64,000 nucleotides of DNA from Clostridia bacterium (GCA_017621085.1 JAGATW010000096.1:7283-71282); one strand, 5' to 3'. Shown: positions 3,719-34,341, numbered from the stretch's first letter. Notes: generated from the letters alone by a model not told the origin. A program made the numbers and translations.

Positions 3719-3762
3719 AATTTGCCACCCTGTGTCAATAAAATGAATAAAAGGAGCAATAA

Positions 3763-12638: not shown

Positions 12639-12682
12639 TAAAATCATTAAGCTACCCACTAATTTAGTGGGTAGCTTTTTTA
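12141..12682 (+). repeat. Copy 2 of the 542-bp colinear duplication
   Basis: See 10463-11004. Confidence 0.9.
12649..12682 (+). terminator. Rho-independent terminator (duplicate of 10971-11004)
   Basis: Same AAGCTACCCAC / GTGGGTAGCTT stem, then TTTTTAT tail. Confidence 0.8.
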
Positions 12683-12692
12683 TGCTCGCTTG

Positions 12693-12721
12693 TTGACAAA
12701 GCAAATCAATAATTGTATAAT
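12693..12721 (+). promoter_or_regulatory. Consensus sigma-A promoter of the giant gene
   Basis: TTGACA (12693-12698), 17 nt, TATAAT (12716-12721). Confidence 0.7.
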
Positions 12722-12785
12722 TACTTTATAGAGTTATAATTAAATTATAGTGATTTACTATGTTGTTTAAATGCAAGGAGGCAAT

Positions 12786-15700
12786 ATGGAAAAAATAAAG
12801 AATAATTGGAAGAAAATAGTCATAATAGCCTTAGCTGTGCTACTAATAATCACAGCAACAGTTATAGGCGTTTTGCTTTACGAAAGGGAGCTTAATAACT
12901 ATCGTGATGAAAAGATAGAAGAGCTTATTGAAAAGCAGGGCACTTATGATGAAAAAAGCATTGTCCTTAATAATACAAGCTTTGGCGAGGCGCAAAGACT
13001 TGCAAAAAAGCTTGGTGCAAAGCTAAGAATTACGGAAAATGGTAAATTTGCCACCCTAACTCTTGAGGATGAGCGCAGTATTATTGACATATTCAAGGAT
13101 GAAAACAACATAAAAGAGCTAAAAAGCCTAACCCCTGACTACGAGGCAAGAATAAACGAGGAAGAAAACGATGAAGAAGGCTTAAAAAAAGAGCCATCTG
13201 CCCCCGTTTATCAAGTAAAGGATGCTCTTTATAGCAATCAATCATACCTGAACTATATGAATTTACAGACCATATGGTCTAAAACTAAGGGTAAGGGAAT
13301 GAGCGTTGCTGTAATTGATACAGGTGTTGACACAGACCATCCGGACTTGGTAGGCAAAATAAGCGAATATTCATATAATGCCACCCTTGACAAAATAGTT
13401 AAGGACTATCAAGGGGAAAACGGTGGCTATGATTGGTCATTAATTGAGGACCAAGTAGGACACGGAACGCAGGTAGCGGGTGTTATTGGCGCAAATATGG
13501 ACGCAAACGGTATAACAGGAATCGCCCCCGAGGTGGAAATTGTTGTTATAAAGGCAGAGTGTGCCCAAAACGGAACATTTGTTCGTACATCTGACCTTGT
13601 TTTCGGTATTTATTATGCTATCGAGTGTGATGTTGATGTAATCAATATGTCCTTTGGTACAAAATACAACCTGTTTAGCGACGCTACATACCTTGCATAT
13701 GATAGCGATATTATTTGCGTAGCCTCAGCAGGTAACAACGGTAGCTCTGCTGAAAACTACCCTGCTGCCGACCAATATGTAATAGGTGTTGGCGCATTAG
13801 AGGCAGATGGCTGGGAGCTTGCAGAGTATTCTAACTATGGTATTAATACGGATGTAGTTGCCCCAGGTACAGTTTACACCACAAAAATGGGTGGTGGCTA
13901 TGGCACAATTGAGGGAACATCCTTTTCATCTCCTCTTGTAGCAGGAGCAATATCATTATATTTATCACAAAACAAATACCAAAGCTATGATGAGGTTTAT
14001 GAGCTTTTGTCCGTTTCAAGTATGGACTTAGGCGATTTAGGTAAGGACTGGTATTTCGGATATGGTGCATTGGATGTAAGCGCCCTTATTCTTGAGGAGC
14101 GCGGAACAATTACCTTTGAAATGCTAACCGACGAGCTTGACGATATAGAGGCTACCTTTATTCGCAATCATACAATGCAAGAGCTTCCTATACCGGAAAG
14201 ACTATATTCCTTGTTTGATGGCTGGTATTATGATGATAAATGTACAGAGGAGTATGCTTATTATGAGGATGTATTTACATCTGACCTTACCTTGTATGCA
14301 AAATGGATTAATGAAAGTGACGGAATACCATACACATATGAAATATTGGACGATGGAACAGTTGAGATAACATCCTATACAGGACATAGAAGATATATTA
14401 CCATTCCTGAAAAAATTGAGGGAAGAGTAGTTAGCTCCATAGGTGCAGGTGCATTTTTAAGACAGTCAAATATAAGAGAAATTAATCTTCCATCACAGCT
14501 TAAAACAATTAAAAACAGCGCATTTGAGGGATGTAGCTCATTATTAAATATACAAATTCCCGACACAGTTACATCTATTGGCGAAAGGGCGTTTTATGAT
14601 TGCTTTAAAATTTTAAGCATCGAATTAAGCACAAGCAGTCAGCTATCAACCATAGGTCAATATGCCTTTGCATCCTGTGGCAGAATTGAGTCCTTTGATT
14701 TGCCATCCACAGTTACATATGTAGATGCAACAGCCTTTCTTGGCAACCTAATGCAAACACAAATCAACGTAATGAACGGAAATGAAAGCTTTGTTTCCAA
14801 GGATGGCGTATTATTTAACAGATACGCAACCACGCTTATTGCATATCCTATGGGCAAGAGTGGTGACTACATAATACCTAACTCCGTTACACGCATAGGT
14901 GAGTATGCCTTTGCTTTTAGCCTGCTTGAATTTGTTGACTTAGCAAGGGTAGAAACCATAGGTAGCTATGCATTTAAGGGCTCAGTAATAGAAAGCCTTG
15001 TAATTAAGGACACAGTAACAAGCCTTGGCACAGGCGCATTTTCTATGTGTCCAGCATTATCAGAGGTTTATATCGGCAAGGGCATTAATTCTATTAGCTC
15101 AGGCGCATTTTCAGGCTGCTCATACTTAAGACAAATAACCATTCCTAACAATATTACAAGCATAGGCTATGCTGCATTTGGACAAAGCGGACTTACAGAA
15201 ATCAGCTTTGATAGTGGCTCTGACTTAAGAATGATAGGTATGGAAGCCTTTGCTATGACAAACCTTGTAAAAATAGAAATTCCTTCATCTGTAAATTTGA
15301 TAGACACAAAAGCATTTTATAAGTGCTATTCACTTGAAGAGGTTGCTTTTGACAGTAATTCCACACTTAATTCTATTAATGCCTACGCATTTTCCAAAAC
15401 GGGCTTAAAGGCTATTAATTTTCCATTAAGCCTTGAATATATTGATAGCTTTGCCTTTTCTGAATCAGCCCTTGAGGGTGAAATTTATATTCACGAAAAC
15501 ATAGAAGGAATGGGCGCAGGTGTATTTTCATATTGTAATTTACTCAACGCCATAAGAGTTAGCGAAAATAATAATAGCTATTGCGATATGAACGGTGTCC
15601 TTTACACAAAGGATTTAAGTCAGCTTTTTGCATATCCTTGTGGAAGCAAAACAACATCATATGTAATTAATGAAAGCACAAATAATATAATTCCATATGC

Positions 15701-18700
15701 ATTTGCAGGAGCAGAAAAGCTATATAGTGTAAAAATACCACAACAGCTAAGAGTTATAGGTGAGCTTGCCTTTTATGCTTGTGGCGCAAGGTCATATATT
15801 TTAAATAATGTGCTTGAGGAAATTTCCGCATCCTCCTTTGCAAAAAATGAGAATTTACAATTAATTACAATTCCTAAGAGTGTTAAAACTATTTCAAGAG
15901 GCGCATTTTCTTATAATACAAATATGAGAAGCATAGCTTTTGAAAATGAAGGCAGTCTTGTAAGAATAGGTAATGAAGCATTTTTAAAGTCAGGAATTAC
16001 AGAAATAAAAATTCCATCAACTGTTTCTACCATAGGACAGGGCGCATTTAACGGTTGCGAAAATCTTTATAAGGTAACATTTGAGGAAAATAGTCAGCTA
16101 AATTCAATTTCTGCATATATGTTTGAGGGTGCTTCCTCACTTTGCGAAATTATATTTGAAAAGGGCTCACAATTAAAGAGCTTACAGGCACACGCCCTTG
16201 ACGGAATGTCAAAAATTCAAAGGGTTGATTTGTCAAATACACAATTAACAAATGTTGATAATTTTGCCTTCCGTTTTTGCGAAAGCTTAACCGATTTATC
16301 ATTACCATCAACAGTTAGCTACATAGGTAGATATGCCTTTTACGGTTGCTCATCACTAAGTAGCCTATCCTTGCCAAGCTGTCTTGAATACTTAGGCGCA
16401 TATGCGTTTTTAGGCACAGATGGTATGGTGCTATACTTTATGAGTGAGAATTTCCCACCATACTTACAGGAGGAATGGGACAGAGGAGTTATATCTTATC
16501 ACTTAGGCGTTATTTCCGTTGAAGAAAAGGACGGCTGGAAATATGCTACATTAGTAGATGGTGGTATTTCCATAATTTCCTATACAGGTGAAAACAAGGA
16601 AATAGATATGGAAAAGCTTAACCTTGGTGGCGATATTGTTTCCATAGGTGGACAAGCATTTGAATTTAGTAATGTGGAAACGGTTAAATTACCAAGCACA
16701 CTGACAAGCATACAAAAATATGCCTTTGCAAGCAGTAAGCTTAAGGAGATTACAATTCCTAAGAGTGTTACCTTTATAGGTCAAAACGCATTTTTGGAAA
16801 CGCCTATAAAATCATTAACCTTTGAAACAGGAAGCGAATTAAGAGTAATAGAGCAATATGCCTTTGCATATACAGAAAGCCTTAATAGTGTAAGCTTACC
16901 GTCATCAATTGTAACCTTAGGCACAGGCGTATTTTTAAATAGTGGTATAAAATCCCTTACCTTTGATAAGGAAATAGGAATTGAAAAAATACCGCCACTT
17001 GCCTTTGCAAATACTAAAATAGAAGCTCTTACCTTGCCAAATAGTGTTTCGGTAGTAGATGATAATGCATTCAGAGAAACTAAAGCATTAAAGACCGTTG
17101 ATTTTGGTAATAACGAGTATATTCAATTAATGTCCAACGCCTTTTATCTAAGTGGCATAAGTGAGCTTACAATTCCTAAAAATGTTGGCTACATAGGCGA
17201 ATTTTGCTTTGTTGGTCTTACAAACTTAAAGGAATTTAAGGTAGATAGTGACCATGAATATTATAAAGCTATTGATGGCTTGCTTTACGAAAAGGACGGA
17301 AGAAAGCTTATTTGTGTCCCCTCAGCAAGACAAGGCACACTTACCTTGCCAAAAGAGGTTGAGGAAATAGGCTTTGGCGCATTTGAATATTCAAGCTTAG
17401 AGGGAGTAGAGTTTAATAAGGACTCCAATATACTAACTCTTGGCTATCGTGCCTTCTTCGGTATGGAGAATTTAAAGGAAATCACCGTTCCGAAAACTGT
17501 CGTTTCAATTGACTATTATGCCTTTGCATATTGTACCTCTCTTGAAAAAGTTTTCTTTGAGGAGGGTAGCCGATTAAGTGGCATATATGAGGGCGCATTC
17601 TGTGGTGATGAGCGTCTTTACGATATAACCTTACCAAATGAGGTTTTGGAAATATCCGATTATGTATTCTTTGGTTGCTCATCAATTAAAAAGCTCCCCA
17701 TTAGCAGTGACTCAAAAATAAAGGGCATTTATTCCTATGCCTTTGCATACACGGGCTTAACTGAGCTTAATTTACCAACAACAGTAAATGAAATAGGAAG
17801 CTATGCCTTCCGTGGCTCATCTGTTGAAAGAGTATATATTCCAGATGACAATTATGAGGTATTAACTATTGGCTACGGAGCCTTTGATTCCTGTAATAAT
17901 ATGGTAGAGCTTACAACTCCAATTATAGGAAGCTCTCTATATTACCCGGAATCAACAAGCCTTTCATACATATTTGGCACAGGAAATAATAGCCTAAAGG
18001 TTATGAACATAAGCGATGTTGTAACAGTAATACCTGATTTAGGTATTACCGGCTTTGGTGCTCTTGAAACACTTAATATTCCTGCAAGTGTAACTACATT
18101 AGGATATGGCGCTATAGCTACACCGGCTAAATATGAGCTTTTGTCCCCTGTATATGTTAATTCATATATATTTGATGGTGGAAATGTTGTCGGTAATGTA
18201 GTATTAACAGGTAACAAGCTACAAAGGGTAAGCTTTAACGGTCCTTATGTAGTATCTGTTACCTTGCCTGACACCATTGATGATAGCATTTCCTTTAGGA
18301 ATTGCACAAGCCTTGAAAGTGTTAATATCCCACTTGGCATAACAGCAATTGACAAAAACTGCTTTGAAAATTGCACCGCTCTTAAGAAAATAGAGCTACA
18401 TAGCGGTATTACAAGCTTAGGTGAAAAAGCCTTTTATAAATGCACAGGCTTAGAGGAGGTAACAGGACTTAGCGGTATTACCCAAATGGGTAATGAAGCC
18501 TTTAGCGGTTGTAGCAGCTTAAAGCGTGTTGAAAGCTTAGGCAGAATAAAGGTAGTGCCTGCCTATGCCTTTGCTTATTGCGAGTCCTTAGAAACAGCTC
18601 CTTTGCCAAGCACACTTACACAAATAGGAAGCTACGCCTTTATGCAGTGCTGCTCATTAAATGAGATTAATATACCAAATGGCGTAACTTCAATCGGTAT

Positions 18701-21700
18701 AGATGCCTTCGTTGGCTGTAGCGGTCTTACAAGAATACATATTCCGGGCTCTGTTTCCGTAATAGATGAGTATGTATTCAGAGGCTGTAAAGGACTTATT
18801 AACGTAACTATCGGAGAGGGCGTTACTGATATAAACAGATTTGCCTTCTACGATTGCTATGTATTAAGAGAAATTACTCTGCCAAGCACCCTTAAAAGCA
18901 TTTTAGGCTCTGCCTTTGGCTCAACAGATGTAGATGTTATAAGGAATAACAGCTCCTTAAATCTTACAATTGGTGGAAATGATTACGGTGAAATAGCCAA
19001 GAAAGCTCATACAATCTACGACAAAGACGGAAACGCAACCTATAAGGACCCATCAAGCCCATATACATATTACACCACAAGTGATGGCTTTAAGTTTATT
19101 GTAAATAATGATGAATACAGGCTAATAGAGTATGTTGGCAATTCAGAAACAGTAACCTTGCCCGAAGATGTAAATGGAAAATCATATATCTTAGATGGCG
19201 TATATGGAATAAAAAATGTAATTATTCCATCAAGCTTTAAGGAAATAAATGCAAAAGCCTTTTATAAAAACACCTTGCTTGAAAGCGTTGAATTAAAAGA
19301 GGGTGTTACTAAAATAGATGATGAAGCATTTTATCAATGTAGCAGCTTAAAGAGCATTAATATGCCTTCAAGCCTTACATCTGTTGGACAATACGCATTT
19401 AGAGAGTGCGCTATAACAACCATTGACCTTGGCAACGTAACAAGCTTAGGTGGTGGCGTCTTTACAGCTTGCAAGCAGCTTGAAATGGTTAAGCTTGGAA
19501 AAGTAGAAAAATTGAGTGCTACCTTTGAGGGGTGCTCATCACTTAAGGAAGTAACAATTCCAAGCACAGTTACACAAATGTCATCACGTATATTTGTAAA
19601 TTGCACATCTCTTGAAAGCATTATAATTCCTGAGGGAGTAACTGTTCTTGGTGACTTTACGGGATGTACGTCGCTTAAATCAATTAAGCTGCCATCTACC
19701 TTAAAGCAATGCGGAAGCTTTGCACAATGCTCATCTCTTGTAAGCGTTACTATTCCAAACGGTGTTCAGTCAGTTCCTGATTTTACTGATTGTAAGTCAC
19801 TTAGGTATGTATATCTTGGAAAATCAGCAACAGGAATAAGCAGCAGAGCGTTTAAGAACTGTGATAGCTTAAAGGAAATTGAAATAAGCTTGGAAAATAC
19901 AAGCTTTTCATCAAAGAATGGCATAATTTACGGTAAGCTTGCCAATGTAAAGAGTGTAATATTCACAGTTCCTACCTTAAGTGGTGTTATTACAATTGAT
20001 GACGGTACAAGCATAATTAACGCAAGCGCATTTGCTAATAATAAGACTATAACAAGGGTAATTATTCCAAAGTCAGTTGATGAAATAGGAGAAAATGCAT
20101 TTAGTGGCTGTACATCCCTTGAAAGCGTTATCTTTGAAGGTGGAAAAATTAAGGACAGAGCATTTAGTGGCTGTACATCTCTTAAGGACATAAGCCTTGA
20201 GGGTGCTACACAAATTGGTGAGTATGCCTTTGATAATTGCATAAGCCTGAGAAACGTTAAATTCGGACAAGACCTTACTATAATTGATGACTATGCATTT
20301 AATAGCTCAGGTGTTGAAAGCGTTGTTATTCCATCATCAGTTACAGAGCTTAATTCAGGTGCATTTATGTTCTGCGATAGCTTAGTTGAGGCTTCCTTGC
20401 CAAACGGAATAACAAGAATTCCGTATAACTGCTTTGCGTATTGCTATAATTTAAGACGGGTTGAAATTCCAAATACTATAACAACCATTACAGAAAACGC
20501 CTTTACAGGATGCTCAAATCTTGTAAAAGCAGAAATTCCAAATGGTGTTACAGAAATAGGAAGCAACGCCTTTTATGGAGCAAGCTTAACAGAGATAACT
20601 CTTCCAAGCACTCTTACAACAATTGATGATGATGCATTTGATAACTGCAACACACTTTATCTTATCAATAATAACAGTGGCTTAAGCTTAACTATTGGCT
20701 CAAGAGAAAATGGTCGTGTAGCAGAAAACGCAAAGGCTATAAAAAACAAAAACGGAGTATATCAATACGCAAGTGGAATTAGCGATTATTCCTATATTGA
20801 TACCGAAAACGGAATACGCTTTGCATTATCAGGCTCAAAATATACCTTAGTTGGCTATATCGGAGATGACACAGAAAATGCAATTGAATTACCAAGTACT
20901 ATTAATAATCAAGTCTATGAGCTATCAGGCTTAGCGGGCTTTACAAGAGTAAAGCTACCAAGCACCATTACCGAAATTAAAGCAAATGCATTCCAGCAAA
21001 ACGGTTCGCTGATAGAGGTTGTAATTCCATCATCTGTAAAAAGAATAGACTATGGTGCGTTTGCTTACTGTCCAAGACTTGAGGAGGTATATATTTGCTC
21101 AGGAGTTGAGGAAATAGGAGGATATGCCTTTAAGGGTTGCAGGAGCTTAAGTAAGGTAACCTTAGAAAACGGTGTTATAGCCTTAGAGTCAGAGTGCTTC
21201 TCGGATAATCCAAGGCTTGAAGAAATTATCATTCCAAACAGCACAAAAACAATAGGAGCTTATTCATTCAGCGGTTGTACATCCTTAAATAAGGTAACCT
21301 TGGGCAATAGCTTAGAGCTGATTGACCATGATGCTTTCAGAGATACAGCGTTCTTTGAAAACAAGGAAAACTGGACGGCAGAGGCATTAATTGTCAACGA
21401 TTATTTGCTCGCTGTTACTGATGAATGTGAGGTTTATCCATATTACGAGGGCTTAAAATGTGTATCTGTAATCAGTGGTGCTCGTTTGTCACAGGTTGTT
21501 GTGTTCGATGAAAACATTAAGCTGAACGTAAGCGCCTATACGGACACCTTGGTGTTTGTCAATATGCCAAAAACAAAGGTGCTTCGTGATTTCTTTGGAA
21601 GCAATAAAATAATACCAAGCTCAATTAAGAACATCGTAATTTTAGACGCAGATGTACCTTTGGTAAATCCTAAATTCTTTGAAAAGGCAAGTGGCTTAAA

Positions 21701-24700
21701 TATTTATTTAAGCAAGACCGAAAAGGATTTAAGATGGGATGCAAACTATCCCGGCTGGAATAATGGCAATCAGGCTTATTACGAGAATGAATGGATATGC
21801 GCACAATTCTATAATGAGGATGCTCTTGTTAAGAGAAGCTACCTATTAAATTCAGAGCTTATTGTAAGACCATATATTTATGACATCTATGATGAAGCAT
21901 CAATATATGGCTTAATAGGATGGGATTTGGATGGTGACGGAGTTAAGGACCGTATCCCTGTAACATCGGCAACGGACCTGAAAGCACAAGCAATTTTCGG
22001 TCAGAAGGAAAGACACTATACTATTTCCTTCCTTGATAAAAATGGGGAAAAGATAGCAATTTACACTCTTCCCTATGGAGAAAAAATTAATGCTCCGCAA
22101 ATGCCAACCGTAAAGGGCTACGACTTTGTTATGTGGGATGGCTATTATGATGGCATAACCGTAAATGGAGATATGACCTTTACAGCCCTTATGATGCATA
22201 AGGGAAATGGCCACGAATATACAGATGGCGTGTATATAAGCCCAACCTGTACAAAGGGTGGAGGCTACTTATATACCTGTACAATTTGTGACGAAGCATA
22301 TTTTAATCAAACAGAAAGCCACAAGGGACACATGCTAACAAACACAATTGTCCCACCAACCTGTACATTAAAGGGCTACACAATATACCATTGTGAAAAT
22401 TGTGACGATATTAATATTCATCATAGCTTTGTTCCAAAGGCAGAGCATAGCTATGGAGAATGGAATATTGTAAATAACGCAAGCTGTACAGAAAATGGCT
22501 CTAAAATAAGATATTGTGTTGATTGTCAAAGAGGCGATGTTGAGATAATAAGAAAGAGTGGCCACGAATACAGCGTTGATATAATAGAAAAATCAACTTG
22601 TATAAAGGAGGGCTTGGCAAATTACACCTGTAAAACCTGTAATAACGTAAGCCAAGGCAAGCTTGACCTTGCTTCTCACTCATACGAGCTAAAAACATCA
22701 TCATACGATTTTATTAAGGAACTTGTAGAATTAATGCCAAATATATTTGTTGGTAAAAACGGGGACAGTGCCTTTTACTATGAATGTATTACCTGTGGTG
22801 ATATCAGTACACAGGATAAGGGCGGAGTACAAACTAACTCAGCAGGTATATCAGGCTCTTGTACACATGTGGCAGGAAATTGGCGGGTTGTCAAGTATGC
22901 TCAAGGCAAGCAAAACGGTATTTTCGGAAAATACTGTGTATTCTGCTCAGAGCTTATAGAGGCAAAGGTTTATTCCTATGTACAAATTACAGAAAAGGGC
23001 TCTGATTACATTAAATATGAGGTAGAACAGGGCTATGAATACAGTATAGACGGAATTAACTATAACGATAGTGGTATCTTTAACGGACTTGGCTCTGATA
23101 ATGAATATGTAATTTACGTAAGAGACAAGGTAACTAAGGAGGACAAGGGTCCAACCTTAGTAACAACCGCAAAAAAATACACCTATACCTTCTATGATTA
23201 TAATGGCAACATTTTAAAGCAGGAATCAGTATTTGAGGGTGAAAAAATAGTATTGCCATCATTTACTCCATCAAGAGAAAAGGATGTACAATATACATAC
23301 ACCTTTAGCCATTATGATGGTTATAGTGAAGGAATGGTTGTAACAGAGGATGTATCCTTTACCGCTATATACAATAAGGTAATAAATAAGTACACCTACA
23401 TTTTCTATCATGACGACGGAGTAACAGAGCTTAAGCGAGTAAGCGCTGATTATGGCACTATCATAATGATGCCCACAATTAATCCAACAAAGGAAAGCAA
23501 TGGTGAAATATCATACACCTTTAGCCATTATGAGGGCTTTAGTGAGGGAATGATATTAACAGGTGATGTTTCCTTTAAGGCTGTATTTAATGAGGGCAAA
23601 ATGAAATATACATATTCCTTTATTGATATAAACGGTAATATTATTTTAAGTGGCACTCTTGAATACGGAAGCGTGGTTGTAGCTCCAAGCATACCTACTA
23701 ACCCACAATATCCACAGGGTCAGTATAATGGTGTATGGAAGGGCTACTATGATGGCTACATTATAACAGGCGATGTGGAATTTAAGCTTGAATATGTAGA
23801 TACATCTAAAAAGTATTCCTGTGCATTTGCAGATTGGAATGGAAGAATACTTTATTCATACATCGGTACAGCAGGGTCAGTAATTGTTTTACCATCAACC
23901 GAGCCATCAAGAAATAATACCCTTACTCATACCTACACCTTTATAGGCTATGAGGGCTATTATGAGGGTATGGTTTTAACTGAGAATAAGATATTTACAG
24001 CTATGTATGAGGAAAAGCCAATTATGTACACCTACACCTTCCTTGACTGGGATGGAAGTGTAATAGCAAGTGGTGAATTAATGTATGGTGAAATAATTCC
24101 AAAGCCAAATGACCCGACAAGACCAAGCGAGGGTGAGCTTTTATATACCTTTACAGGCTTTACAGGTTATTTTAACAATATGATGATTAATTCAGATGTA
24201 ACCTTTACAGCAACCTATAAGGCAACAAAGGGTGGACTATATAATGTCCATACAAACGAAGCCTATTGTGCCCCGGGTCAAATTGTAATAGTTGATTTGT
24301 ACGCAAAGCAATTAAGTGGCAACGGTGGAGTAATAGAGCTATTTGTAAATAGTGAATATGCATCTGTTGTTCAAATCTATTTGTATGGCGCTAATATAAG
24401 CACACAAAATACAAAGGATTATGTAAAAATAGAATTGCTTGACTTACTATCTCAGGATACAAAAATTGTTGGCGTTGCATTAATGATAAGCAACGATGCC
24501 CCCCTTGGCAATCTTGATGCTTTTGATGTCGGTACAAATATAACAAGCGACTTTAAGCCAATAGAGCTTTGCTTGCTGGGCGATGTTGACCAAAACGGAG
24601 TGATTGACAATGCAGATATTGATTTACTTAACAGATACGCCTTGGGCGAGTTTGAATTAAGTGAAAGGGAGCAATATTTTGCAGACGTATTCAAAACCGA

Positions 24701-24965
24701 TGTATATGAGCCGGGCAGTCACATAAATGCAAAGGACGTATTAAGGTTAAGACAGCTTATTAAGGCTCAAGCAAATGCTATGTCTTGCGAAAATAATGTG
24801 TCAAACAGCACAATTATTACCCCGTTAGATGCTCATGAGCCAACATCAGAGTCGGTTGCTTTTATAGAAAAAACAGACACGTGTGTGGCTATTTTGCCAA
24901 AAAGCTACCACGAGGACAGGCATTTTGTGATTATTTCAAGAAAAGGAGAGTTGATTTATGCGTAA
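12786..24965 (+). CDS. Giant (4,059-aa) cell-surface protein: signal-anchor, S8 subtilisin-like protease, BspA-type LRR array, Cys/His repeats, Flg_new repeats, cohesin-like module, dockerin
   Basis: Uninterrupted ORF. AAGGAGG (12775-12781) precedes ATG 12786; the track start 12771 has no RBS. Hydrophobic helix KKIVIIALAVLLIITATVIGVLLY. S8 triad motifs VAVIDTGVD, HGTQVAGVI, GTSFSSPLVAG (~13250-14090). LRR_5-type repeats ~14340-21400. Flg_new-type units (F/Y..Y.G...) ~21990-22200 and ~23170-24230. Dockerin EF-hand-like segment GDVDQNGVIDNADIDLLNRYALG (~24574-24770). Confidence 0.85.
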   Translation: MEKIKNNWKKIVIIALAVLLIITATVIGVLLYERELNNYRDEKIEELIEKQGTYDEKSIVLNNTSFGEAQRLAKKLGAKLRITENGKFATLTLEDERSIIDIFKDENNIKELKSLTPDYEARINEEENDEEGLKKEPSAPVYQVKDALYSNQSYLNYMNLQTIWSKTKGKGMSVAVIDTGVDTDHPDLVGKISEYSYNATLDKIVKDYQGENGGYDWSLIEDQVGHGTQVAGVIGANMDANGITGIAPEVEIVVIKAECAQNGTFVRTSDLVFGIYYAIECDVDVINMSFGTKYNLFSDATYLAYDSDIICVASAGNNGSSAENYPAADQYVIGVGALEADGWELAEYSNYGINTDVVAPGTVYTTKMGGGYGTIEGTSFSSPLVAGAISLYLSQNKYQSYDEVYELLSVSSMDLGDLGKDWYFGYGALDVSALILEERGTITFEMLTDELDDIEATFIRNHTMQELPIPERLYSLFDGWYYDDKCTEEYAYYEDVFTSDLTLYAKWINESDGIPYTYEILDDGTVEITSYTGHRRYITIPEKIEGRVVSSIGAGAFLRQSNIREINLPSQLKTIKNSAFEGCSSLLNIQIPDTVTSIGERAFYDCFKILSIELSTSSQLSTIGQYAFASCGRIESFDLPSTVTYVDATAFLGNLMQTQINVMNGNESFVSKDGVLFNRYATTLIAYPMGKSGDYIIPNSVTRIGEYAFAFSLLEFVDLARVETIGSYAFKGSVIESLVIKDTVTSLGTGAFSMCPALSEVYIGKGINSISSGAFSGCSYLRQITIPNNITSIGYAAFGQSGLTEISFDSGSDLRMIGMEAFAMTNLVKIEIPSSVNLIDTKAFYKCYSLEEVAFDSNSTLNSINAYAFSKTGLKAINFPLSLEYIDSFAFSESALEGEIYIHENIEGMGAGVFSYCNLLNAIRVSENNNSYCDMNGVLYTKDLSQLFAYPCGSKTTSYVINESTNNIIPYAFAGAEKLYSVKIPQQLRVIGELAFYACGARSYILNNVLEEISASSFAKNENLQLITIPKSVKTISRGAFSYNTNMRSIAFENEGSLVRIGNEAFLKSGITEIKIPSTVSTIGQGAFNGCENLYKVTFEENSQLNSISAYMFEGASSLCEIIFEKGSQLKSLQAHALDGMSKIQRVDLSNTQLTNVDNFAFRFCESLTDLSLPSTVSYIGRYAFYGCSSLSSLSLPSCLEYLGAYAFLGTDGMVLYFMSENFPPYLQEEWDRGVISYHLGVISVEEKDGWKYATLVDGGISIISYTGENKEIDMEKLNLGGDIVSIGGQAFEFSNVETVKLPSTLTSIQKYAFASSKLKEITIPKSVTFIGQNAFLETPIKSLTFETGSELRVIEQYAFAYTESLNSVSLPSSIVTLGTGVFLNSGIKSLTFDKEIGIEKIPPLAFANTKIEALTLPNSVSVVDDNAFRETKALKTVDFGNNEYIQLMSNAFYLSGISELTIPKNVGYIGEFCFVGLTNLKEFKVDSDHEYYKAIDGLLYEKDGRKLICVPSARQGTLTLPKEVEEIGFGAFEYSSLEGVEFNKDSNILTLGYRAFFGMENLKEITVPKTVVSIDYYAFAYCTSLEKVFFEEGSRLSGIYEGAFCGDERLYDITLPNEVLEISDYVFFGCSSIKKLPISSDSKIKGIYSYAFAYTGLTELNLPTTVNEIGSYAFRGSSVERVYIPDDNYEVLTIGYGAFDSCNNMVELTTPIIGSSLYYPESTSLSYIFGTGNNSLKVMNISDVVTVIPDLGITGFGALETLNIPASVTTLGYGAIATPAKYELLSPVYVNSYIFDGGNVVGNVVLTGNKLQRVSFNGPYVVSVTLPDTIDDSISFRNCTSLESVNIPLGITAIDKNCFENCTALKKIELHSGITSLGEKAFYKCTGLEEVTGLSGITQMGNEAFSGCSSLKRVESLGRIKVVPAYAFAYCESLETAPLPSTLTQIGSYAFMQCCSLNEINIPNGVTSIGIDAFVGCSGLTRIHIPGSVSVIDEYVFRGCKGLINVTIGEGVTDINRFAFYDCYVLREITLPSTLKSILGSAFGSTDVDVIRNNSSLNLTIGGNDYGEIAKKAHTIYDKDGNATYKDPSSPYTYYTTSDGFKFIVNNDEYRLIEYVGNSETVTLPEDVNGKSYILDGVYGIKNVIIPSSFKEINAKAFYKNTLLESVELKEGVTKIDDEAFYQCSSLKSINMPSSLTSVGQYAFRECAITTIDLGNVTSLGGGVFTACKQLEMVKLGKVEKLSATFEGCSSLKEVTIPSTVTQMSSRIFVNCTSLESIIIPEGVTVLGDFTGCTSLKSIKLPSTLKQCGSFAQCSSLVSVTIPNGVQSVPDFTDCKSLRYVYLGKSATGISSRAFKNCDSLKEIEISLENTSFSSKNGIIYGKLANVKSVIFTVPTLSGVITIDDGTSIINASAFANNKTITRVIIPKSVDEIGENAFSGCTSLESVIFEGGKIKDRAFSGCTSLKDISLEGATQIGEYAFDNCISLRNVKFGQDLTIIDDYAFNSSGVESVVIPSSVTELNSGAFMFCDSLVEASLPNGITRIPYNCFAYCYNLRRVEIPNTITTITENAFTGCSNLVKAEIPNGVTEIGSNAFYGASLTEITLPSTLTTIDDDAFDNCNTLYLINNNSGLSLTIGSRENGRVAENAKAIKNKNGVYQYASGISDYSYIDTENGIRFALSGSKYTLVGYIGDDTENAIELPSTINNQVYELSGLAGFTRVKLPSTITEIKANAFQQNGSLIEVVIPSSVKRIDYGAFAYCPRLEEVYICSGVEEIGGYAFKGCRSLSKVTLENGVIALESECFSDNPRLEEIIIPNSTKTIGAYSFSGCTSLNKVTLGNSLELIDHDAFRDTAFFENKENWTAEALIVNDYLLAVTDECEVYPYYEGLKCVSVISGARLSQVVVFDENIKLNVSAYTDTLVFVNMPKTKVLRDFFGSNKIIPSSIKNIVILDADVPLVNPKFFEKASGLNIYLSKTEKDLRWDANYPGWNNGNQAYYENEWICAQFYNEDALVKRSYLLNSELIVRPYIYDIYDEASIYGLIGWDLDGDGVKDRIPVTSATDLKAQAIFGQKERHYTISFLDKNGEKIAIYTLPYGEKINAPQMPTVKGYDFVMWDGYYDGITVNGDMTFTALMMHKGNGHEYTDGVYISPTCTKGGGYLYTCTICDEAYFNQTESHKGHMLTNTIVPPTCTLKGYTIYHCENCDDINIHHSFVPKAEHSYGEWNIVNNASCTENGSKIRYCVDCQRGDVEIIRKSGHEYSVDIIEKSTCIKEGLANYTCKTCNNVSQGKLDLASHSYELKTSSYDFIKELVELMPNIFVGKNGDSAFYYECITCGDISTQDKGGVQTNSAGISGSCTHVAGNWRVVKYAQGKQNGIFGKYCVFCSELIEAKVYSYVQITEKGSDYIKYEVEQGYEYSIDGINYNDSGIFNGLGSDNEYVIYVRDKVTKEDKGPTLVTTAKKYTYTFYDYNGNILKQESVFEGEKIVLPSFTPSREKDVQYTYTFSHYDGYSEGMVVTEDVSFTAIYNKVINKYTYIFYHDDGVTELKRVSADYGTIIMMPTINPTKESNGEISYTFSHYEGFSEGMILTGDVSFKAVFNEGKMKYTYSFIDINGNIILSGTLEYGSVVVAPSIPTNPQYPQGQYNGVWKGYYDGYIITGDVEFKLEYVDTSKKYSCAFADWNGRILYSYIGTAGSVIVLPSTEPSRNNTLTHTYTFIGYEGYYEGMVLTENKIFTAMYEEKPIMYTYTFLDWDGSVIASGELMYGEIIPKPNDPTRPSEGELLYTFTGFTGYFNNMMINSDVTFTATYKATKGGLYNVHTNEAYCAPGQIVIVDLYAKQLSGNGGVIELFVNSEYASVVQIYLYGANISTQNTKDYVKIELLDLLSQDTKIVGVALMISNDAPLGNLDAFDVGTNITSDFKPIELCLLGDVDQNGVIDNADIDLLNRYALGEFELSEREQYFADVFKTDVYEPGSHINAKDVLRLRQLIKAQANAMSCENNVSNSTIITPLDAHEPTSESVAFIEKTDTCVAILPKSYHEDRHFVIISRKGELIYA
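22209..22676 (+). repeat. Four in-frame tandem units of exactly 117 nt (39 aa) with a conserved H...C-x9-C-x2-C pattern
   Basis: Units start at 22209 (GHEYTDG), 22326 (GHMLTNT), 22443 (EHSYGEW) and 22560 (GHEYSVD). Each has one His near its start and three Cys (e.g. PTCTKGGGYLYTCTIC). Confidence 0.85.
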
Positions 24966-26043
24966 AACAAAAATTGTATATTTAATATTGGCTCTCCTTG
25001 TAGCTGTTTCTGCTATTATCTCCTGTGGGGATAATAGTGGAAACGAGCCACCAAGTGAGAATAATAAGGTGCAAATAACCTTTGTAACAAGCACGGGCAT
25101 GGAAATCGGCACATCGGTTGTGAATAAGGGTGACAGTGTTAGATACCCTAACCCACCGATGATACCGGGCATGACCTTTGAAGGCTGGGATAAGCAAATT
25201 TTTTCAGCCACCGAAAACACAACAATAACAGCGATTTATGTGCCGTTTAATCAAAATGATGATGGTGGCAAGGGGGAAATGGTCTTAGTTAGCTTCTTTG
25301 ATATAAACGGAAATATCATTTTCTCTGAGCGCATAATGACGGGCGAAAGACTTGAATACATACCACAAGCTCCGCAAATTGAGGGAAAAAGATTTATGGG
25401 CTGGAGTGAAACACCCGATATAATTACAGAGGAGTTAAATATTTACCCAATTTATGAGGACCTTGTCAGCTATGAGGTTAGCTTTTATGACTATGATGGC
25501 AGATGGATTGAAACCGTTACCGCCTATGAAAATAAAAGCGTTACTCCGCCAAGCCTTGAAAGAAGAGGCTATGATTTAATAGGCTGGAGTCAAGACTTAA
25601 CCTGTATTAATTCAAGCCTTGAGGTTTATCCTATTTACCAATTAATCACACAATCAAATGTGCTTGATATATCAAATAAGATAAGCAAGGACGGTACTTG
25701 TACACTCACCTTTACTATTAAGGGTAATGTATGCCTTGCAGGAATGCAAGGGGACATAAGCGTGCCTAATAATTTTACAATTGAAGAATTTACAGCCCTT
25801 GATGATGGCTTAGCTGCAAGACAGCAGGGAAACAAAATAAGCTTTGTGTTTACATCGGTAAGCGGTGAGAACATTACAAGTGAAGTAAATCTGTTTTCAA
25901 TTACATTAAGATGCACAGATAACACCTATTTTGCAAGAATGGGCGTTAACATTTCAATGGCTTTTGATGAGGATTTTAACAGTGTAGGCTTAGGTGGTAT
26001 CCTTGGCAACGAGTTTTTTACAGGCATAAGACCAAAATCATAA
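24958..26043 (+). CDS. Lipoprotein with three Flg_new repeats and a C-terminal cohesin-like module
   Basis: Lipobox AIISC-G. ATG 24958 overlaps the giant gene stop (ATGCGTAA). AAGGAG (24943-24948) sits in the last codons of the upstream gene. Repeats end in ..EGWDKQ, ..MGWSET, ..IGWSQD. The C-terminal ~130 aa (from ~25651) look like a beta-sandwich cohesin (TLTFTIKGNVCLAGMQGDISVP..). Confidence 0.8.
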   Translation: MRKTKIVYLILALLVAVSAIISCGDNSGNEPPSENNKVQITFVTSTGMEIGTSVVNKGDSVRYPNPPMIPGMTFEGWDKQIFSATENTTITAIYVPFNQNDDGGKGEMVLVSFFDINGNIIFSERIMTGERLEYIPQAPQIEGKRFMGWSETPDIITEELNIYPIYEDLVSYEVSFYDYDGRWIETVTAYENKSVTPPSLERRGYDLIGWSQDLTCINSSLEVYPIYQLITQSNVLDISNKISKDGTCTLTFTIKGNVCLAGMQGDISVPNNFTIEEFTALDDGLAARQQGNKISFVFTSVSGENITSEVNLFSITLRCTDNTYFARMGVNISMAFDEDFNSVGLGGILGNEFFTGIRPKS

Positions 26044-26094: not shown

Positions 26095-26124
26095 AGCCTT
26101 CTTTTATAAGAGAGGGCTTTTTGT
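26095..26124 (+). terminator. Rho-independent terminator
   Basis: AGCCTTCT / AGAGGGCT stem (one G-U pair), 8-nt loop, TTTTTG tail. Confidence 0.65.
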
Positions 26125-26125
26125 A

Positions 26126-26154
26126 TTGAAAATGTTATTTTGATATGCTATAAT
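26126..26154 (+). promoter_or_regulatory. Sigma-A promoter of the arabinofuranosidase gene
   Basis: TTGAAA (26126-26131), 17 nt, TGC-TATAAT (26149-26154). Confidence 0.65.
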
Positions 26155-28555: not shown

Positions 28556-29482
28556 ATGGAGCAAAAGGAATTATCACAGAATTTTTTTGAAGCTGAATAT
28601 AGATGTGGGTATTACGTAACCGAAAAAATGAAAATGGTTTGGTCACACGAGCTTGAGCTTTTAAAGGAATTTGATAGGGTATGCACAAAAAATAACATAA
28701 CCTACTTTTTAGACGGTGGCACACTTTTAGGTGCTGTGCGTCATAATGGCTTTATACCTTGGGACGATGATGTGGATGTAATTATGCCACGCAAGGACTA
28801 TGACAGGCTATGGGAAATTGCAAGAAACGAGTTTAGTGAGCCATATTTTTTCCAAACATCACTAAGTGAAAGGAATTTTTTCAGAACCCACGCACAGCTA
28901 AGAAAAAGTGACACAACAGGCTTTATTGACCTTGATAGACACAAGGACATAAACAAGGGGATTTTCCTTGACATTTTCGTTTTAGATGGCGTACCGGCTA
29001 AAGAAAGTCAAAAAAAGAGGCTAAAAAGAAAAATAGCATTTCAAAAAAAGCTTTTAGCCTACAAGTATGACGTTGACTTTTCAAGTGTTGGCTTTAAAAG
29101 GAAAATCTTATATCTTTTGTCCCGTGTATTTTATGCCTTTGTTCCTTTTGAAAAATACTTTAATAAATTTAACAAAAAAACCTTGGCAAAATACTCCTGT
29201 AAGGACACAAAAATAGTAGGAGATTTAACTCTTGAATGGCGTGAAAACGTTCAATGGAATAAGTCTTGGTACAGCGACACAGTTAGACTAAGCTTTGAAA
29301 ACTTGTCCTTGTGCGCCCCCATAGGCTATGATAAAATTTTAACTAAGCAATATGGGAATTATATGAGAATTCCCGATGATATAAGCGCAAAAAACGGTAG
29401 GTCACACGACGGTGTAACCTTTGACCCAAATACACCATATAAGGAATATTTTAAAAACGCAGAAAAGGGAGAAGAATTATGA
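28556..29482 (+). CDS. LicD-family phosphotransferase (phosphocholine / ribitol-phosphate transferase family)
   Basis: LDGGTLLGAVRHNGFIPWDDDVDVIMPRKDY is the LicD core motif. No convincing RBS at 28556, so the exact start is uncertain. Confidence 0.8.
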   Translation: MEQKELSQNFFEAEYRCGYYVTEKMKMVWSHELELLKEFDRVCTKNNITYFLDGGTLLGAVRHNGFIPWDDDVDVIMPRKDYDRLWEIARNEFSEPYFFQTSLSERNFFRTHAQLRKSDTTGFIDLDRHKDINKGIFLDIFVLDGVPAKESQKKRLKRKIAFQKKLLAYKYDVDFSSVGFKRKILYLLSRVFYAFVPFEKYFNKFNKKTLAKYSCKDTKIVGDLTLEWRENVQWNKSWYSDTVRLSFENLSLCAPIGYDKILTKQYGNYMRIPDDISAKNGRSHDGVTFDPNTPYKEYFKNAEKGEEL

Positions 29483-30195
29483 ATATTGCAGTTGTAATAG
29501 CAGGCGGTAGTGGAAAGAGAATGGGACACGATATCCCTAAGCAATTTATAAATGTATTTGATAAGCCAATACTTATGTACACTCTTGAAAGCTTTGAAAA
29601 GCATCCGATGATTGATGCTATTGAGCTTGTATGTATTGATGGCTGGCACGACGTTGTACGTGCATACGCAAAGCAATATGGCATAACAAAGCTAAAATGG
29701 ATTGTGTCAGGTGGCGAAACAGGACAGGAGTCTATTCGTAATGGCGTATATAATCTTGAAAGCATTTGCAAGGAGGACGACGTTGTAATTATACACGACG
29801 GTATTCGTCCACTTGTTGACGAGGCTGTTTTAACAGACGTAATTCTAACCTGTGAAAAATACGGAAACGGAGTTACATCCTTGCCATATAACGAGCAAAT
29901 TTTCGTAGTAGATGATGAAATTTCCACAACAAAATACATCCCGCGTGAAACTCTTCGCAGAGTATCAACTCCACAGGCATATAAATTTGGCAAGCTAAAC
30001 TGGGCATACCACGAGGCTTTTGCAAAGGAAATAGGAATTTATGGCTCATCATATACAAACACTATGATGGTAGAGCTTGGCGAAAGACTATACTTTGCCG
30101 CAGGCTCAGATAAAAATATTAAGCTAACAAACAAGGACGACCTTGAAATGTTCAAGGCGTACCTTCTTTCCGAAAAGCAAAATAGACTTAATTAG
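29479..30195 (+). CDS. tarI: IspD/TarI-family cytidylyltransferase (probable D-ribitol-5-phosphate cytidylyltransferase)
   Basis: N-terminal VIAGGSGKRMG...PKQF motif. About 238 aa. ATGA start/stop overlap with the LicD gene. The ribitol assignment is inferred from context. Confidence 0.75.
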   Translation: MNIAVVIAGGSGKRMGHDIPKQFINVFDKPILMYTLESFEKHPMIDAIELVCIDGWHDVVRAYAKQYGITKLKWIVSGGETGQESIRNGVYNLESICKEDDVVIIHDGIRPLVDEAVLTDVILTCEKYGNGVTSLPYNEQIFVVDDEISTTKYIPRETLRRVSTPQAYKFGKLNWAYHEAFAKEIGIYGSSYTNTMMVELGERLYFAAGSDKNIKLTNKDDLEMFKAYLLSEKQNRLN

Positions 30196-30204
30196 GAGTA
30201 AAAG

Positions 30205-31257
30205 ATGATTAGTAATCCCTTATATCTTGAGGACATAGAATATACAGCCACTCGTAAATTAAATTGGGACAAGCTCAAAAACTCAACGGTTATGATAAGT
30301 GGCGCAGGTGGACTTATAGGCAGCTTGATAATTGATGTTATTATGTACAAAAATGAAAATGAAGGCTTAAATTGCAAAGTTATAGCATTAGGCAGAAGCA
30401 AGGAGCGTGCAAAGGAAAAGTTTTCATCCTATTTTGACAAAAGCACCTTTAAATTTATTGAGCAGGACATAAATTTGCCTCTTGATAAGGAAAAAACACC
30501 AAGGGCAGATTATGTTATTCATTTAGCAAGCAATACCCACCCATTACAGTATTCAACCGACCCAATCGGAACAATAACAACAAATATTATTGGCACAACA
30601 AATTTACTTGAATTTGCAAGCTATTGCTCCTCAAAAAGAGTATTGTTTGCATCCTCAAATGAAATATATGGTGAAAACCGAGGGGATATCGACCTTTTTG
30701 ACGAGAGCTACTGTGGTTACATTAACTCAAACACCTTGCGCGCAGGCTATCCCGAAAGCAAAAGATGTGGTGAGGCAATGTGCCAAGCATATATAAAGCA
30801 AAAGGGACTTGATGTTGTAATTGCAAGGCTTACAAGGTCCTATGGCCCTACTATGCTTATGTCGGACTCTAAGGCAATATCACAGTTTATTAAAAAGGGT
30901 ATTAATGGTGAGGACATTGTTTTAAAGAGTGAGGGAAATCAGTATTATTCCTATACCTACGTGTCAGATGCAGTATGCGGACTTTTAACTGTGCTATTAA
31001 ATGGTGAGTGTGGCGAGGCATATAATATTGCTGACCAGAAATCCGATATCAGATTAAAGGATTTAGCAAAAATCATTTCTGAATATTCAGGCACCAAGGT
31101 GGTTTTTGAGCTTCCGGACGAAACGGAGAGGGCAGGGTACAGTACAGCAACAATTGCCCGTCTTGACGGAAGCAAAATTAAAAAAATAGGCTGGGTGGCA
31201 AAATACGATATAAAAACAGGACTTGAAAGAACGCTTTCAATCTTAAAAAACAACTAA
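30205..31257 (+). CDS. NAD-dependent epimerase/dehydratase-family (extended SDR) enzyme
   Basis: Rossmann motif GAGGLIGS and catalytic YPESK. Confidence 0.8.
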   Translation: MISNPLYLEDIEYTATRKLNWDKLKNSTVMISGAGGLIGSLIIDVIMYKNENEGLNCKVIALGRSKERAKEKFSSYFDKSTFKFIEQDINLPLDKEKTPRADYVIHLASNTHPLQYSTDPIGTITTNIIGTTNLLEFASYCSSKRVLFASSNEIYGENRGDIDLFDESYCGYINSNTLRAGYPESKRCGEAMCQAYIKQKGLDVVIARLTRSYGPTMLMSDSKAISQFIKKGINGEDIVLKSEGNQYYSYTYVSDAVCGLLTVLLNGECGEAYNIADQKSDIRLKDLAKIISEYSGTKVVFELPDETERAGYSTATIARLDGSKIKKIGWVAKYDIKTGLERTLSILKNN

Positions 31258-31278
31258 CGTGTAAAAAGGAGCATATCA

Positions 31279-34200: not shown

Positions 34201-34341
34201 GGCAAATATTTTGTAACAAAGAACAAAAAACTTTCCTTACAGCGCTCATCAAAGTCTGTACAATTTGTTTATAAATTTTATTATAAGCACATTAAGGGTA
34301 AAATGCTTGCGAGAATAATAAGAAAAATATTTGGAAAATAA
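31279..34341 (+). CDS. TagF/TarL-like CDP-alditol phosphotransferase fused to a HAD-like domain and a further unassigned region (1,020 aa)
   Basis: Glyphos_transf-type motifs VYAPTYRE and IDYSSIFYDM in the first ~370 aa. HAD motif I FDIFDTLISR follows. The remaining ~400 aa have no motif I recognise. Confidence 0.75.
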   Translation: MRDNKLWIFNAGLSFDGNPKWLFMYIQNNRPDIEAHWLCYTEESLNYIKKLGYKAHLYNSEQARKIGSRAGVYVVNQRKEVFQDYLEGITVLNLWHGVGCKLIEKNVKTGILNEGLVKKNIVNMTMYRNNELFLVTSPLMEKHFSDNCRLEEHSILRGVYPNCFSPDKVKTFDHDILKGRNLPKDTKIAVYAPTYRESSATNFFPSAICDMERLVKCLKENNLVLIFKLHPKMQNDFQYLNLKELYKNCPYLVFWDNKDDMYEILDKIDLAIIDYSSIFYDMLARGVKHFIRYIFDIDNKENVRDFALDYMEHTCGPVCKSFDELLGALSNYETVDLSCELERISDLFWGYAKENSSMDHIINSAMEFKPLERELPKLYSFDIFDTLISRSVLTPNGVFYYVSHKMKQSDVKFPSYVIDNYFKIRPWAESNAREYYSKSQIYRSSDWREISFDMIFDRIKTVYDLTDEQIGLLKEWELEGEYKSSIPMRENIDYLKSLLENGERVALISDMYLPSDFIRRLLVKADPVFENVDIFVSSECGHQKTTKKLFLDVYHALEYNYGEWIHHGDNPKADGAIPKSLGIKIAPIPTLKVFKYEQILNEFIKTYDGYQISKLLTVFRNDNKNVIDNFAYRYTSFYFVPYINWVIKHAIKQGIQCLYFVSRDGYHLKRIADAIIEKRQYPIKTKYIYGSRKAWRIPALVDEIDDEFWSEYGNFSGIDSFSRLLKAAALTEEQFKEMFPELMYLKEQWTIDQKTASMLRDTFKSSEKYKSYLLEYAKEKRVIIEKYLTQEINFDEKYAFVEYWGRGYTQTSLARIIWHLRGKVEDNIFYYARTIYPTHDHIIRHNFTVNNFSLIFVETIFANLHYKSIEEFVENENGVVEPVIEENENDKELQVAMEEYLPKFATDYVSLDLLDEDGCDRACFDFGLSYFHRHPNDPMWLKCFTQLKDSATTFGKRTEWAPPMTWKDIFASMRGKYFVTKNKKLSLQRSSKSVQFVYKFYYKHIKGKMLARIIRKIFGK

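Follow-up and report, generated by a model that had tools for sequence, protein, structure and literature searches.

Cohesin–dockerin anchoring of large proteins on Gram-positive surfaces is established through proteins with S-layer homology (SLH) domains, such as SdbA of Clostridium thermocellum (PMC5817068), and in Ruminococcus flavefaciens the cohesin protein ScaE is anchored by an LPXTG motif and sortase (bioRxiv 10.64898/2026.02.05.704116). AlphaFold-based proteomics of Ruminococcus has described sequence-cryptic cohesins, single-cohesin proteins anchored by a membrane helix, and Flg repeats together with leucine-rich repeats (LRR) in scaffoldin-like proteins (bioRxiv 10.64898/2026.02.05.704116), and R. 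flavefaciens FD-1 has 222 dockerins, with 28 LRR modules and 16 peptidase modules carried by its dockerin proteins (PMC2930009). The cellulosome itself is defined by a scaffoldin with at least two cohesins together with dockerin-fused glycoside hydrolases (quoted in PMC13487519). Here we describe a two-gene operon on the + strand of a 64,000-nucleotide (nt) stretch of DNA (the window) from an uncultured gut-type Clostridia bacterium (GCA_017621085.1 JAGATW010000096.1:7283-71282), in which the gene of a giant protein with a C-terminal dockerin is followed by the gene of a predicted lipoprotein that ends in a divergent, cohesin-like module.

We read this pair as a bicistronic, non-cellulosomal surface-tethering cassette of monoderm Clostridia, in which the cohesin of the downstream lipoprotein would anchor the giant via its dockerin; sequence analysis and structural modeling together give this reading, in our estimate, a probability of about 0.68. 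To our knowledge, non-cellulosomal cohesin–dockerin pairs are common in genomes, and for most of them neither the matching of cohesin to dockerin nor the purpose of the pair has been established. In this operon the genome itself identifies the partners, which are adjacent, co-transcribed, and co-diverging, and which offer a directly testable one-to-one pair.

The dockerin and the predicted lipoprotein cohesin

The features on which the argument depends are listed here, with coordinates counted from the first letter of the window.

12786..24965, +, giant gene, 4,059 residues (the mechanical open reading frame begins at 12771; 12786 is preferred)
24246..24563, +, beta-rich module of ~106 residues, joined to the dockerin without a linker
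24564..24767, +, dockerin, with a first calcium loop and helix of canonical form and 6 extra residues in the second loop
24768..24962, +, variable 29-residue linker, then a conserved 36-residue C-terminal tail (SVAFIEKTDTC...RKGELIYA)
24943..24965, +, coupling element: AAGGAG at 24943-24948, ATG at 24958-24960, TAA of the giant at 24963-24965
24958..26043, +, lipoprotein gene, 361 residues
24958..25026, +, type II signal peptide with lipobox I-I-S-C and predicted lipidated Cys23
25069..25638, +, three repeats of the Flg_new family (Listeria-Bacteroides / InlB B), which may form a stalk (Pfam Flg_new expectation value, E, 1.9e-12; 3 stretches)
25639..26040, +, predicted divergent cohesin module of 134 residues (lipoprotein residues 228-361)

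The first segment of the dockerin, GDVDQNGVIDNAD, is a canonical 12-residue calcium loop (D-V-D-Q-N-G-V-I-D-N-A-D), and the second contains a 6-residue insertion, DVFKTDVYEPGSHINAKD. Because this insertion is common to the dockerins of three related loci (L010, L019, and L020), the insertion-bearing second loop represents a conserved subtype and not decay. On the isolated C-terminus of the giant, the Pfam model Dockerin_1 (PF00404) scores 22.8 bits against a gathering cut-off of 22.9, and phmmer matches the dockerin to solved dockerins at about 1e-3. A profile built from this dockerin and six equivalent dockerins of related loci matches 32 PDB chains, the best being 1ohz_B (the Xyn10B dockerin of C. 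thermocellum; 2e-17); among chains with a name specific enough to identify the module, all are dockerins or enzymes that carry one, and a few names are generic. The equivalent dockerins themselves pass Pfam, with E from 2e-13 to 8e-8.

Codon changes were counted against the orthologous locus L001 (GCA_052848595.1), whose giant is 77% identical over its whole length. The 68 codons of the dockerin differ by 18 synonymous and 0 non-synonymous changes, while the remainder of the giant's last 260 codons differs by 39 synonymous and 66 non-synonymous changes, including 24 and 33, respectively, in the module before the dockerin and 5 and 20 in the linker after it. By our own binomial estimate, the chance of finding no non-synonymous change in the dockerin is <1e-6. 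The dockerin is therefore real, under strong purifying selection, and the most constrained part of the giant C-terminus. An earlier reading of the window, made before any search (hereafter the sequence-only reading), had described a clear dockerin segment followed by an atypical second one, and both the family profile and the codon constraint bear this out. Behind the dockerin, the tail (24855-24962) shares 30 of 36 residues with L001, while the preceding linker is not conserved; a Pfam search of the linker and tail gave no match. In L008, L010, and L020, a full Flg_new-like repeat follows the dockerin in the place of the 36-residue tail.

The last codons of the tail contain the Shine-Dalgarno sequence and the start codon of the lipoprotein gene, which overlaps the stop of the giant by 8 nt (ATGCGTAA) with AAGGAG 9 nt ahead of its ATG, as the sequence-only reading had noted. 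The arrangement is identical in L001, whose lipoprotein is a 70%-identical orthologue. The N-terminus of the lipoprotein, MRKTK-IVYLILALLVAVSAIIS-C23-G, has a charged start (MRKTK), a hydrophobic stretch (IVYLILALLVAVSA), and the motif I-I-S-C23, which on reading of the sequence conforms to the lipobox pattern [LVI][ASTVI][GAS]C. The orthologue has V-V-S-C at this position, and at least 17 members of the protein family described below match a lipobox by regular expression. The lipoprotein has no SLH domain (Pfam finds Flg_new only) and no LPXTG motif at its C-terminus (...FFTGIRPKS).

The C-terminal module of the lipoprotein was not matched in sequence searches of Pfam (Cohesin, PF00963, even at E<=10), NCBIfam, or the PDB. 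Among 31 modules of its family, Pfam Cohesin matches 3, all below threshold (best E 0.002). With the 31-sequence profile, the only PDB matches at E below 0.01 are the NagJ cohesin of Clostridium perfringens (2jh2, 2ozn, 2o4e, and 2w1n; E 0.003-0.006). The AlphaFold2 model from this alignment has about 10 strands, where the flattened beta-sandwich (jelly-roll) of cohesins has nine, a mean predicted local distance difference test score (pLDDT) of 92.4, and a predicted template-modeling score (pTM) of 0.85. In a Foldseek search of the PDB with this model, cohesins occupy all of the first 35 ranks (E 6e-7 to 7e-5; template-modeling (TM) scores 0.54-0.71), with types I, II, and III and non-cellulosomal ones represented; among them are 6kgc_A (E 6e-7, TM 0.69), 2xdh, 1anu, and 2jh2. 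As modeled, the module has a cohesin fold, although Pfam does not recognize its sequence, and the claim of a lipobox lipoprotein with a cohesin-like C-terminus, also made at first sight, is upheld by the lipobox and by the modeled fold. The expectation that the Cohesin and Dockerin_1 models would recognize these segments held in part: the dockerin is borderline and neither Pfam nor NCBIfam calls a cohesin in either module of the window, while the family profiles reach 1ohz_B and the NagJ cohesin.

Only one dockerin calcium-loop motif occurs in the whole 64-kb window, and no dockerin-bearing glycoside hydrolase was found there; a neighboring alpha-L-arabinofuranosidase gene is without a dockerin. 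A single dockerin loop together with the absence of dockerin-bearing glycoside hydrolases from the window fits a non-cellulosomal system, as had been proposed.

Recurrence of the gene pair and the cohesin family

An exhaustive HMMER search with the cohesin module against 1.84 billion representatives returned 36 proteins, most of them small proteins in which a lipobox or a helix at the N-terminus is followed by Flg_new repeats and, at the C-terminus, by this module. We inspected the genomic context of ten family members other than that of the window; many of the contigs are short and the sample is small, and two members on short contigs were uninformative. Of the 9 informative members, 7 have the lipoprotein gene immediately 3' of a gene whose product ends in a dockerin; these cases cover 5 distinct genomic contexts and at least 4 passenger architectures. 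The paired loci, with proteins of the family in brackets, are as follows.

Window and L001: partner is the S8 and LRR giant; gap -8 nt
L008 (P0008): partner cut by the contig end, with Cys-rich repeats, module, and dockerin (E 2e-8); gap +60 nt
L010/L011 (P0023) and L020 (Clostridiales bacterium UBA1752): LRR_5 partner of 1,772 residues, dockerin E 8e-8; gap +16 nt in L010, 5 nt in L020
L015 (P0031): partner of 1,471 residues, dockerin (E 2e-13) its sole Pfam family; gap +18 nt
L016 (P0033): partner homologous to the L015 partner; gap +19 nt
L017/L018 (P0036): partner homologous to the L015 partner; gap +22 nt
L019 (P0007): partner of 1,102 residues, dockerin its sole Pfam family; gap +26 nt

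The spacing thus ranges from -8 to +60 nt. That homologues of the two genes would be neighbors with overlapping stop and start codons is accordingly true of the adjacency but not of the overlap, which is specific to the lineage of the window and L001; the other lipoprotein genes begin 16 to 60 nt after the partner gene (5 nt in L020), and those at 16 to 60 nt each have a Shine-Dalgarno sequence of their own. In L010, L015, and L019 the partner protein starts with a cleavable signal peptide, and we see no further anchor to wall or membrane in it. Across 7 pairs, the pairwise identities of dockerins and cohesins co-vary (r 0.78, Mantel p about 0.01), a co-divergence that fits inheritance as a unit. 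In L013 (5430-5992), and also in L014, the gene of family member P0015 precedes a gene, cut by the contig end, that begins with a Fervidolysin-type subtilase pro-domain; this lineage may have the same protease passenger in reversed gene order.

The family also includes other architectures. P0009 has an N-terminal transmembrane helix in place of the lipobox, P0010 is a dockerin-Flg_new-cohesin adaptor, and P0006, P0035, and P0020 are scaffoldin-like, with three divergent-cohesin modules, Thr-rich linkers, and a C-terminal dockerin, which indicates that this cohesin family also builds multi-cohesin scaffolds in other uncultured Clostridia. Scans with alignment patterns of a closer subset gave one locus in genome_contigs (L020) and one in metagenome_contigs (L021). 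The latter (1714-2073) encodes a cohesin-only remnant, P0034, of 119 residues with a GTG start and without signal peptide or repeats, which is probably a truncated copy and is uninformative for pairing; two small open reading frames just upstream of it look, by eye, like an antitoxin and a PIN-type toxin. A word-indexed search of 5.8 billion proteins with the lipoprotein found two 90% clusters only (itself and one 70% orthologue), and with the 31-sequence module profile one fragment only; with the giant C-terminus it returned no match, not even the giant itself.

Competing explanations and the proposed mechanism

The giant has a second candidate partner for its dockerin in the adjacent ~106-residue module, which the sequence-only reading had taken for the start of a cohesin and for a possible means of head-to-tail assembly or autoinhibition. 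If this module were the true partner, binding would occur in cis, as an autoinhibitory clasp, or in trans, as head-to-tail polymers, and the lipoprotein cohesin would bind another dockerin or cap the base of the polymer. The module is present and conserved, being kept in six loci (the window, L001, L008, L010, L015, and L017), and in hhalign a profile of these six sequences can be aligned co-linearly to the cohesin family of the lipoprotein (probability 53.5%, E 1.3e-4). Among the orthologous modules, those of L010 (E 0.006) and L017 (E 0.005) match the Pfam Cohesin model along most of its length, with scores that fall short of the gathering cut-off. This likeness is marginal: the module of the window alone, or in a two-sequence profile with its orthologue, has no Pfam or PDB cohesin match, the six-sequence profile has no PDB match below E 0.3, and a single-sequence AlphaFold2 model of module and dockerin (pLDDT 37) is unusable for reading the fold. 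Against a role as the partner, the module is absent from L016 and L019, where the lipoprotein cohesin remains; it is shorter than a usual cohesin (the Pfam Cohesin model has 139 positions); it evolves fast beside an invariant dockerin; and the lack of a linker before the first calcium loop argues against a canonical fold-back in cis. We therefore consider a dockerin bound by its own neighbor unlikely and read the module, more probably, as a beta-sandwich of X-module type and probable cohesin ancestry that plays an accessory part.

A second alternative concerns the lipoprotein, whose beta-sandwich could be a carbohydrate- or wall-binding module, or one for some other ligand, with a jelly-roll fold, and the two genes would be linked for some other reason, for example because the lipoprotein is a co-adhesin or helps in export or folding. 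CBM2 and chitin-binding domains (6qfs, 3ndy, and 5dhd) do appear among the Foldseek matches, the Pfam Cohesin model is silent on the module, and two family members have no upstream dockerin gene. The CBM2 and chitin-binding matches stand only below the 35 cohesins, however, the sole PDB matches of the profile under its 0.01 limit are likewise cohesins, the family includes scaffoldin-like cohesin–dockerin proteins, and a C-terminal dockerin is the feature common to otherwise unrelated passengers; we regard this alternative as a little less probable still. A third account, in which the two genes are neighbors by chance in one lineage, the dockerin is a degenerate relic, and the giant is held by its N-terminal helix only, would suit the Pfam score 0.1 bit under the cut-off, the atypical second calcium loop, and the giant's own hydrophobic anchor, but this most improbable of the accounts is already largely refuted by the codon constraint and by the same pairing in 5 genomic contexts, and the second-loop insertion shared with L010, L019, and L020 also speaks against it. 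None of the results pointed to a phage, a plasmid, or a defense function.

Several observations weigh against the tethering cassette that we favor. In contrast to the other partners, the giant begins with a hydrophobic anchor of its own, and a second tether is then less obviously required. Pfam Cohesin does not match the cohesin module of the window at all, and this module shows no stronger conservation than the remainder of the lipoprotein (39 synonymous and 38 non-synonymous changes in the module relative to L001), although one might expect tighter constraint on a protein that binds an invariant dockerin. Compared by eye with L001, its putative 8-3-6-5 face is ~75% identical and the other face ~65%, a difference that so few data do not allow us to weigh. 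An upstream dockerin gene is lacking in two family members (P0015 follows rplT, and P0016 follows non-coding DNA), and the correlation between dockerin and cohesin identities can also arise from shared phylogeny alone.

On balance, the cohesin fold, the NagJ profile match, and the recurrent pairing support the initial proposal that the lipoprotein is the likely anchor for the giant's dockerin. In the mechanism that we propose, the giant subtilase/BspA-LRR protein would be exported, and the lipoprotein, with a lipid on Cys23 inserted in the outer leaflet of the cytoplasmic membrane, would present its single divergent cohesin on three Flg_new repeats that may act as a stalk keeping it off the membrane. 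The C-terminal dockerin of the giant would bind this cohesin, presumably in a calcium-dependent manner, and its capture would keep the giant adhesin/protease on the producing cell instead of releasing it. The 8-nt overlap and the internal Shine-Dalgarno sequence may link production of the anchor to ribosomes reaching the end of the 12-kb passenger gene, and the ~106-residue module would support the dockerin as an accessory domain. A wider possibility, which we offer as a long shot, is that the dockerin and lipoprotein cohesin form a portable cassette for almost any large passenger, a new anchoring route in monoderm Clostridia independent of sortase and SLH domains, and that, where the module is kept, it binds the dockerin of the next molecule to give head-to-tail, pilus-like, non-covalent fibers with the lipoprotein at the base.

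Surrounding features and comparison with known systems

From its N-terminus, the giant consists of a hydrophobic helix, a Peptidase_S8 domain, an LRR_5 region, Cys-rich repeats, Flg_new-like repeats, the ~106-residue module, the dockerin, the linker, and the tail. The features upstream of the module and the expression signals of the operon are listed here.

12649-12677, strong hairpin terminator of the preceding gene
12693..12721, +, promoter-like site TTGACA-17 nt-TATAAT directly 3' of that terminator, 12/12 consensus matches (consensus scan only)
12816..12881, +, N-terminal hydrophobic helix, IVIIALAVLLIITATVIGVLLY, a signal-anchor or uncleaved signal peptide, read from the translation
13290..14066, +, subtilase (Peptidase_S8) domain, Pfam E 9.5e-46
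14448..21740, +, BspA-type LRR region with ~21 LRR_5 stretches, Pfam LRR_5 1286 bits, approximate extent by eye
22638..23330, +, cysteine-rich ~40-residue repeats (H-x-Y...C-x2-C)
23448..24215, +, five Flg_new-like ~65-residue repeats (YTYTF.D..G...), judged by eye
26095..26128, +, terminator-like hairpin (26095-26118) and T tract closing the operon

The longest reading frame of the giant begins at ATG 12771 (4,064 residues), with AAGGAGG (12775-12781) falling within its first codons; because this sequence lies 4 nt upstream of 12786, the start is most likely ATG 12786, and public gene calls give the giant 4,059 residues. The hairpin at 26095-26118 is the only terminator-like hairpin after the lipoprotein gene, and the next promoter-like site (26126-26154) follows directly. 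After the N-terminal helix, no A-x-A cleavage site was seen by eye, and Pfam found no pro-domain in the stretch that separates the helix from the S8 domain; we speculate that auto-processing of a subtilase pro-region could remove the helix. The S8 domain has the D, H, and S catalytic motifs (VIDTGV, HGTQVAG, and GTSFSSP), and its closest NCBIfam model is the type VII secretion mycosin TIGR03921, at 157.6 bits against a cut-off of 278.75. Mycosins are membrane-tethered subtilases. The Cys-rich repeats have no Pfam family match and may be zinc-ribbon-like spacers; similar repeats also precede the module or dockerin in the partners of L008 (2-400) and L019 (about 3600-4150), which are otherwise unrelated proteins.

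Elsewhere in the window, two adjacent genes for secreted proteins (8945-10960 and 11115-12638) have in common a 210-residue C-terminal domain that is 72% identical between them (…GCVNEGCTHKTTETAPALFTC…YCYDTYNNIVSALN). The 507-residue protein of this pair has no Pfam match, and the other matches LRR families (BspA LRR_5) in its N-terminal part only; the common domain could be another surface-attachment or sorting module. A CotH-kinase-family protein with a lipobox-like N-terminus (…LCLFAC-S) is encoded at 4890-6914 and is followed by a Macro-domain protein (6942-7985). Downstream of the operon, a teichoic-acid cluster (28556-34341), syntenic in L001-L003, encodes LicD, an IspD-type cytidylyltransferase, an NAD-dependent epimerase/dehydratase, and a 1,020-residue CDP-glycerol glycerophosphotransferase (Glyphos_transf, TagF-like); teichoic-acid genes this close to the operon indicate a monoderm envelope.

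The proposed cassette would give Gram-positive anaerobes a way to retain very large adhesin/protease proteins through a lipid-anchored socket, in place of sortase or SLH-domain attachment, and a compact orthogonal cohesin–dockerin pair with a built-in lipid anchor could serve in surface display. With the anchoring scaffoldins of cellulosomes, such as SdbA and ScaE, it has in common the cohesin fold and the general plan of a cell-bound single-cohesin protein that captures the dockerin of a large secreted protein. It differs in that the predicted anchor is a lipobox lipoprotein with a putative Flg_new stalk, with neither SLH domain nor LPXTG motif, in that the passenger is a protease/LRR giant and not a scaffoldin carrying glycoside hydrolases, and in that one dedicated anchor, whose cohesin is too divergent for Pfam, stands in an operon with one passenger. 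Nor does the locus conform to the definition of a cellulosome, having one cohesin on the lipoprotein and the only dockerin of the window on a protease/LRR protein.

The cohesin–dockerin modules of C. perfringens join secreted enzymes into complexes, and PDB entry 2ozn contains the NagJ cohesin with the dockerin-bearing chain of a hyaluronoglucosaminidase. The NagJ cohesins (2jh2, 2o4e, and 2ozn) are the best profile matches of the lipoprotein module and are also among its fold matches, and both systems would use the interaction outside plant-cell-wall degradation; sequence identity between the NagJ cohesin and the module of the window is, however, about 15%. We know of no lipoprotein anchor or operon pairing for the toxin and glycosidase pairs of C. 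perfringens. The membrane-anchored single cohesins of Ruminococcus resemble that of the window in being detected by structure only and in the direct membrane attachment, which is predicted here, and some family members, P0009 among them, likewise use a transmembrane helix. The Ruminococcus proteins differ in having transmembrane helices, lipoproteins being unmentioned (bioRxiv 10.64898/2026.02.05.704116), and in belonging to cellulosome and amylosome systems with many dockerins, not to a two-gene cassette. As a second example of cohesins invisible to sequence models, the present family suggests that Pfam-based surveys will undercount such systems.

The dockerin proteins of R. flavefaciens FD-1 that carry LRR or peptidase modules provide a precedent for both LRR–dockerin and protease–dockerin architectures, although the dockerins there plug into multi-cohesin scaffoldins, whereas the window has one dockerin in 64 kb and one adjacent lipoprotein cohesin. 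The giant also resembles the X-module–dockerin (XDoc) dyads of types II and III in having a beta module of ~100 residues directly N-terminal to the dockerin, without a linker, and some of the Foldseek cohesin matches of the lipoprotein module (2b59, 5k39, and 4iu3) are partners of such dyads; the weak similarity of the window's module, however, is to cohesins and not to known X modules, and the dockerin profile is nearest to type I. No lipoprotein-anchored cohesin was found in the literature, of which our coverage is incomplete. The system involves no new principle; what is new is that a predicted lipobox anchor, a putative stalk of Flg_new repeats, and one cryptic cohesin are combined with a conserved operon pairing with one dockerin-ending passenger.

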